Shown here piece after piece: positions 5,256-5,804 of a DNA stretch of 9,870 nucleotides. The stretch's first letter is position 1; each line of letters begins with the position of its first letter. The notes under the pieces were generated by a model, which did not search any database, was not told the DNA's origin, and saw nothing but the letters and a program-made list of their open reading frames with translations. The DNA is from a virus (Duplodnaviria > Heunggongvirae > Uroviricota > Caudoviricetes), in the IMG/VR virus record IMGVR_UViG_2713896780_000030; one strand, written 5' to 3'. A program made the translations under genes and the position numbers.

Positions 5256-5804
5256 ATGCAAAAATCCTTCCGATTCACCAATTCATCCATCAAAGCCCTT
5301 CCGGCAAACACAGATACCCGATCTACAGAGCTTGAGGTATCAGATACCGAGGTCATAGGCCTCAAATGTCTCTCAGGTCGAACGGGTAACAAACGTTTCC
5401 TCCTGCGCTACACATTCCACGGTACCAAAAAAAGTATCAGTATTGGCAGATTCCCTGAAATCGATGTGGGGACAGCCCGTCAGATAGCTCGTCGTCACAA
5501 GGAGGCGATTGCACTGGGAAATGACCCTAAAGCAGAACGCGATAATTATCGTGCGATGCCAACACTTAGTGAGTTTTTTCACCAGACCTATGTTCCGTTC
5601 ATCAAACGCCATAAAAAGTCCTGGGATAAGGATGTTCAGCGTTTCACGCAATACATTGAACCTCGTCTGGGGAAGATACGTTACTGCGACCTTCGGGCCC
5701 GGGAGATCCAGCAGGTGCTTTTTGACATGTTACTGAATAGCCTTCTGACGTCAGCCATTCAGCAACCTCTTTACAGGAATAACTTTTTTTATCTTTCAGC
5801 ATAA
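5256..5804 (+). pseudogene. N-terminal fragment of a P4-type tyrosine integrase (arm-binding DUF4102-like plus start of core-binding domain); catalytic domain absent
   Basis: ATG at 5256 with GAGGA 5 nt upstream. FTNSSIKALPA...GLKCLSGRTGNKRFLLRYTFHGTKKSISIGRFPEIDVGTARQIARRHKEAIALGNDP matches the P4-integrase N-terminal domain pattern, and ...LGKIRYCDLRAREIQQVLFDM matches the core-binding region. Similarity stops near nt 5729; the remaining 24 codons are unrelated and no R/HxxR/Y catalytic region follows. Confidence 0.6.

Follow-up and report, generated by a model that had tools for sequence, protein, structure and literature searches.

A 5.8-kb internal deletion joining the integrase and piPolB genes in a lineage of Escherichia coli pipolins

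How can an integrase gene and a DNA polymerase gene come to occupy the same DNA on opposite strands? This question is raised by the virus record IMGVR_UViG_2713896780_000030 (9,870 nt; the window, by which we mean this whole stretch of DNA), where two open reading frames (ORFs) overlap antisense over 5644-5804. The ORF on the plus strand (5226/5256-5804) resembles the beginning of an integrase. The one on the minus strand (5644-8199, 851 aa) has a weak Pfam match to the family B polymerases and is 98-100% identical to the annotated piPolBs of E. coli, the polymerases of the elements known as pipolins. A first-pass annotation had read the overlap as a fusion scar, where polymerase-bearing DNA was joined to, or inserted into, an integrase gene. 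We compared the locus with intact and with similarly altered pipolins, and found it very likely (a probability of roughly 0.93) that the window represents a deleted form of an E. coli pipolin, produced by one internal deletion of 5,821 bp.

The deletion joint and its distribution

We used the pipolin locus of E. coli strain SHP24 (locus L003), situated at the tRNA-Leu gene leuZ, as the reference for an intact element. Its gene order is leuZ, a 246-aa gene, a 400-aa integrase gene, two hypothetical genes, a DUF2787 gene, a DUF726 gene, a WYL/helix-turn-helix (HTH) regulator, a 108-aa gene, the 866-aa piPolB, a 212-aa gene, an HTH gene and a tyrosine recombinase gene. By BLAST, window positions 4193-5729 corresponded to L003 12000-13535 and positions 5729-9062 to L003 19357-22687. 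The 5,821 bp that are absent from the window relative to SHP24 carry six genes, DUF2787 and the WYL regulator among them. The joint, a feature of neither strand, lies at 5729/5730, inside the interval (5727-5730) where a recombination junction had been suspected from the window alone. Its integrase side ends with ...GACATG and its polymerase side starts with TTACTG, and only G5729 is common to both parents, a microhomology of 1 nt.

In the SHP24 locus the integrase is intact and stands 5.8 kb away from the 866-aa piPolB. The notion of a fusion scar holds; that of polymerase DNA inserted into an integrase gene does not, as both genes belong to one element that has undergone an internal deletion. 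It is true that the insertion of polymerase-bearing DNA into an unrelated resident integrase gene, or its fusion to such a gene, would leave two unrelated coding sequences overlapping antisense in a similar way. However, in the intact forms one syntenic element holds both this integrase and this polymerase and occupies the same tRNA site, the 3' half of the integrase was found neither beyond the polymerase nor elsewhere in the deletion-type loci, and the native C-terminus of the polymerase is conserved across distant taxa. We consider such an insertion or fusion extremely unlikely.

Next, we searched window positions 5180-6400 by megablast against 5,426 complete E. coli genomes. The whole stretch with the joint was present in 33 genomes, many of which are O145:H28, and in the partially matching genomes among the matches listed the alignment begins exactly at query position 550, that is, at window position 5729. 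A 41-mer spanning the joint was identical in all nine deletion-type loci that we retrieved, which come from different hosts and countries, and occurred in none of the three intact loci. No match to the missing 5.8-kb segment was observed in any of the retrieved deletion-type loci, including a 44-kb locus that covers the whole island. An exact scan for the 41-mer in contigs representing one genome per species gave 0 matches, and the exact 851-aa protein, WP_022582033.1, was found on 331 contigs. A run of 50 Ns (4143-4192), about 1.5 kb from the joint, reveals a scaffolded or masked source, and might by itself suggest that the joint was created during assembly or scaffolding. This explanation has practically no probability left: 33 complete genomes, contributed by many laboratories and drawn from many hosts, and 9/9 retrieved loci show an identical joint, and the chimeric protein is repeated exactly on the 331 contigs. 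We concluded that the joint is a single deletion within one element, which was inherited or spread as a unit, and is neither an insertion nor an assembly artefact. Because the 41-mer is the same in every deletion-type locus retrieved, the deleted forms appear to share a common origin.

In the ancestral element the order was the attachment site (att), the 246-aa gene, the integrase IntSXT on the plus strand, the intervening genes, piPolB on the minus strand, the 212-aa gene, an HTH gene resembling an excisionase, and the recombinase IntP2. One illegitimate (non-homologous) deletion then connected integrase codon 158 to piPolB codon 824 via the one shared base, presumably by end joining or by slippage at minimal homology. 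We infer illegitimate recombination because the breakpoints overlap by only 1 nt and because base-level alignment revealed no insertion sequence (IS) element, repeat or common core at either of them. Alternatively, a site-specific recombinase of the pipolin or of a P2-like prophage could have made the deletion at pseudo-att sites, in connection with the cointegration of prophages. Frequent prophage cointegration is reported for the deleted subgroup (PMC11551731), and the end of a P2-like prophage abuts the pipolin att site in the window, both of which would fit. But a single shared base without a common core sequence speaks against this route; moreover, leuZ directly adjoins the pipolin, with no prophage in between, in seven of the retrieved deletion-type loci (L002, L004, L005, L006, L009, L010 and L011), and whereas 296 complete E. 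coli genomes have piPolB, as many as 505 contain the prophage end. A recombinase-made deletion is thus highly unlikely in our judgement, and an illegitimate deletion remains the preferred explanation.

Deleted pipolins of this lineage have been described before. In the part of the paper available to us, Mateo-Cáceres et al. 2024 (PMC11551731) depict a deletion between IntSXT and piPolB with a truncated recombinase (Fig. 3B, 'pipolin 2'), assign the deleted forms to a monophyletic piPolB clade suggesting a common origin, and report frequent cointegration of adjacent prophages. All four traits of this subgroup of Enterobacterales pipolins (deletion, truncated recombinase, single origin, adjacent prophage) were seen here: the window lacks 5,821 bp relative to SHP24, its integrase is cut at codon 158, the joint is shared and a prophage adjoins the element. 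As an element, the window's pipolin does not differ from this subgroup; the same part of that paper gives no base-level joint, 1-nt microhomology or 27-residue swap of piPolB 825-866. Flament-Simon et al. 2020 (PMC7385651), again in the text available, found a truncated XerC_2 with the arm DNA-binding domain only (LREC247, LREC250, LREC251, CC32), as well as truncated piPolBs, integration at tRNA-Leu with att repeats, and a myovirus prophage adjoining the pipolin in some strains including FWSEC0002; truncation was linked there to low horizontal transfer. Those pipolins and the window have in common the arm-only recombinase, the tRNA-Leu integration and the prophage neighbour, and FWSEC0002 carries the joint of the window at 100% identity, whereas a swap of the polymerase C-terminus is not described in that text. 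To this we add the position of the joint at base level, how large the deletion is and what it removed, and the loss of a conserved, folded C-terminal segment of piPolB. The feature matters little beyond correct annotation: one deletion explains why an arm-only integrase pseudogene overlaps an odd 851-aa polymerase in a lineage that includes O145:H28 Shiga-toxin strains.

The integrase remnant and the exchanged end of piPolB

The integrase remnant occupies 5256-5729 on the plus strand and comprises codons 1-158 of an IntSXT-family gene. Over residues 1-158 it does not differ from the 400-aa integrase of SHP24; residue 159 is also Leu by chance, and beyond it the two proteins are unrelated. This agrees with the earlier description of the ORF as an integrase N-terminus up to about residue 158 (nt 5729) followed by unrelated sequence. 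The continuation, 5730-5804 on the same strand, is a meaningless read-through that runs antisense to piPolB and ends at the first stop codon. Arm-DNA-bind_3 (PF13356, expectation value E = 6.9e-15, residues 7-96) was the only Pfam domain in the ORF, which supplies the profile match to integrase N-terminal domains that the first reading needed; no catalytic domain was detected with Pfam. The retained part therefore amounts to the arm-binding domain and a portion of the core-binding domain, and the catalytic domain, located at residues 213-377 of the intact protein, is wholly lost in the deleted form. RefSeq labels the remnant 'Arm DNA-binding domain-containing protein, incomplete, missing C-terminus', a pseudogene overlapping the polymerase coding sequence, and the earlier call of a pseudogene devoid of a catalytic domain was correct.

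We also considered an inversion, in which the catalytic ORF at 9085-9726 (minus strand) would be the missing half of the integrase. This candidate was rejected, as its frame is open to 9870 and spans that same core-binding region, but differs from the integrase in sequence there, and as it is the separate recombinase of intact pipolins. The tyrosine recombinases of a pipolin are accordingly represented in the window by the truncated IntSXT (5256-5729) and by this second recombinase (9085-9870).

The remnant had been called 'P4-like', which proved apt for its arm-binding architecture but not for its class. NCBIfam PRK09692, which we take to stand for CP4-57-type integrases, gave the intact integrase 22.6 bits against a cut-off of 434 bits. 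None of the phage integrases in the phage collection reached 30% identity to the intact protein, and no P4 was among the matches listed. Judged by sequence comparison, 'P4-type' fits the architecture only (an arm-binding domain and, in the intact gene, a catalytic domain), and the tests of specific P4-type similarity failed. The published class is IntSXT (PMC11551731), and IntSXT is the recombinase considered in the literature to be primary for pipolin mobility. Because the catalytic domain of IntSXT is lost, the deleted pipolin is probably immobilised; excision and integration by IntSXT would no longer be available to it, and it would be effectively fixed in place.

On the minus strand, the native part of piPolB (5730-8199) retains residues 1-824, with the exonuclease and polymerase motifs intact. 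The joint falls within codon 824, which still specifies Thr, and 813 of 823 residues are identical to the SHP24 piPolB. Beyond the joint follows a new C-terminus (5644-5729, minus strand), made up of 27 codons (5647-5727) and a stop codon (5644-5646), which is the antisense of integrase codons ~131-158. This tail, CQKAPAGSPGPEGRSNVSSPDEVQCIA, replaces the native 42 residues VTDVKNAVRAKIPQMKFSSVTPRMKSLMDIIARKYPTFCLPV (825-866 of 866), so that a read-through origin of the polymerase tail, as first proposed, is confirmed to the residue.

We then asked which of the two ends is ancestral. An earlier protein search with the native piPolB had returned near-identical E. coli proteins only and was uninformative on distant relatives. 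A search against 1.84 billion representative proteins (50% representatives) gave 569 matches at E<=1e-30, and most of the best 150 of these, at 30-50% identity, align through query residue ~860-864. Across 115 full-length diverse representatives, occupancy exceeds 0.9 at nearly all positions from 825 to 866, with conservation of 0.64 for N830, 0.67 for A831, 0.70 for R833, 0.73 for P842 and 0.85 for P860; the level of conservation of this segment is similar to that of the remainder of the protein. The distant piPolBs thus carry the native 42-residue end and not the 27-residue tail, and a tail shared by unrelated hosts, which would have made it native, was not observed. AlphaFold2 modelled the native piPolB with a predicted local distance difference test score (pLDDT) of 89 and a predicted template modelling score (pTM) of 0.87, and residues 728-866 alone with a pLDDT of 93; helices were placed with high confidence at 809-818, 825-830 and 846-858. 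Because the lost 42 residues are conserved in the 115 piPolBs and confidently folded in the model, the native end is ancestral and the 27-residue tail is a by-product.

According to the model, the deletion removes the last two predicted helices of a six-helix C-terminal domain (residues ~730-866), and with residues 825-866 replaced, the window protein does not have the complete C-terminal helical domain of a full-length piPolB. The best structural match of the native model was to the phi29-type protein-primed family B DNA polymerases (Foldseek E=3.5e-16; TM 0.65 on the phi29 length). Searching the PDB by sequence with piPolB gave no match, and the C-terminal helical domain had no structural neighbour in the PDB. 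As a natural C-terminal truncation and swap allele, the chimeric protein could help to probe the role of this uncharacterised domain.

Signs of decay and of selection in the chimeric polymerase

Is the chimeric polymerase still functional? The reference piPolB of E. coli 3-373-03_S1_C2 (Redrejo-Rodríguez et al. 2017, PMC5695915) is of the same family and shares with the window protein the residue numbering and the motifs D59/E61, D368, SxTTDG and KH-X8-KTRG; compared with the intact E. coli enzyme, the difference is the exchange of the last 42 of 866 residues for 27 unrelated ones. The residue roles and motif definitions for exonuclease, polymerase and priming activity were taken from PMC5695915. 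D59, E61, D368, TTDG 573-576, K613, H614, K623 and R625 are all present in the window protein, which therefore has the motifs by which the piPolB of a pipolin is recognized, namely D59/E61, D368, the SxTTDG variant of PolC and KH-X8-KTRG.

We observed further lesions in several copies that bear the joint. The RM8995-C1 copy has a frameshift, those of C325 and UTME-3 are cut to fragments of 651 nt and 720 nt, respectively, the CUVM53 copy is truncated by IS903B and the ESDR8 copy has an IS2 insertion. In PS10-3 (L004 7465-10029), the start codon of piPolB is changed from ATG to GTG, the gene has a 9-nt duplication, and two ORFs take the place of the second recombinase; in O145 strains, IS3 copies have inserted around and in that recombinase. 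Large truncations were commoner in the deletion clade, with 4/33 genomes versus at most 7/263 others (Fisher p=0.024). The function of the chimeric polymerase is probably reduced, or selection has ceased to act on it, and this would explain the further independent lesions in the deleted copies. A loss of polymerase function is likely but unproven.

Several observations weigh against an impaired polymerase. All residues that have been tied experimentally to exonuclease, polymerase and priming activity are kept, and many genomes carry the 851-aa ORF open and unchanged, with the protein seen on 331 contigs; loss of function is thus not demonstrated. The comparison of truncations involves small numbers and partly clonal hosts. 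Intact-type pipolins are occasionally disrupted too, as seen in the frameshifted piPolB of 99COLEC. Within the deletion clade the two compared alleles differ by 3 substitutions (0 synonymous, 3 non-synonymous), too few for a ratio of non-synonymous to synonymous substitution rates (dN/dS).

These points could mean that the 851-aa piPolB is still functional and that selection keeps the deleted element as an immobilised island, with the tail and the truncation being tolerated or even useful. The intact catalytic residues and an ORF that stays open without variation in many O145:H28 genomes are in line with such a view, as is the purifying selection seen between clades, where the ratio of non-synonymous to synonymous polymorphism (pN/pS) is 0.15-0.22. 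However, the pN/pS between clades mostly reflects history before the deletion, and the invariance among O145:H28 strains may be explained by clonality. Multiple independent inactivations within the clade and the conserved, folded nature of the lost segment also speak against retained function, which we regard as unlikely. Going further, the 851-aa piPolB could be active and the deletion an adaptive 'domestication' by which the pipolin, together with its defence cargo, became locked into the chromosomes of O145:H28 and related strains. This seems quite unlikely to us. If true, the enzyme could dispense in part with its family-specific C-terminal helical domain, and cointegration of P2-like prophages might be favoured at a permanently occupied att site. 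We favour impairment or relaxed selection of the chimeric polymerase.

Some other changes were seen in the compared loci. A sub-lineage with the deletion (PS10-3, YJR, XPFI_3_2, GPEC1292 and CM196106) has a 9-nt in-frame tandem duplication that adds DWD after residue 753. O145 strains have IS3-family copies just beyond piPolB and in the second recombinase (L002 12231-13540 and 14997-16210; L007 29119-30332), which fit the 'sequencing gaps compatible with ISs near the IntP2' of the literature; the IS3 at position 8409 is absent from the window. The pipolin of 99COLEC (L012 8370-10969) is of the intact type, having the full integrase and the 5.8-kb segment, yet in addition to the frameshift in piPolB it has an IS1 in the DUF2787 region. 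Because this intact-type element is disrupted as well, decay is not confined to the deletion clade.

The attachment site and neighbouring genes

The tRNA-proximal att copy lies inside the window (4091-4269, plus strand), at a locus that corresponds to leuZ in complete genomes, whereas the distal repeat falls beyond the limits of the window. The proximal copy is composed of 52 nt of the 3' end of tRNA-Leu (leuZ), the 50-N run and the sequence downstream of leuZ, the latter being common to nearly all E. coli genomes. Between the same flanks, complete genomes have 3 bases (locus L002 8011-8013), and for this reason the Ns are either a gap left by scaffolding or a mask that alters the length, and not real sequence of that extent.

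The 246-aa pipolin gene (4435-5175, minus strand) stands between the attachment site and the integrase and is kept in intact and deleted pipolins. The 212-aa gene next to piPolB (8249-8887, minus strand) is also conserved, being present in all compared pipolin loci. Neither protein had a Pfam match even at E up to 10, and the 246-aa protein had no NCBIfam match. A uracil-DNA glycosylase of type 4 is frequent in E. coli pipolins according to the literature, and 4435-5175 could not be shown to be one. Scans for promoters and terminators around the joint and the native 3' end of piPolB gave nothing above the shuffled expectation. The second tyrosine recombinase (9085-9870, minus strand; Pfam Phage_integrase, E=1.3e-22), the IntP2 type of the literature, continues past the last base of the window and aligns collinearly with the recombinase gene found in intact pipolins.

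The other end of the window (1-4142) holds the integrase end of a P2-family prophage, with HTH repressor-like genes, DUF2511 and a 333-aa phage integrase (2983-3984). Cointegrated at leuZ, the prophage end itself (1-4090) lies immediately upstream of the pipolin, where it abuts the att copy and is followed by the 52 nt of tRNA-Leu. This arrangement of prophage and pipolin is 99.5% identical to that of the O145 strain RM11626-C1.
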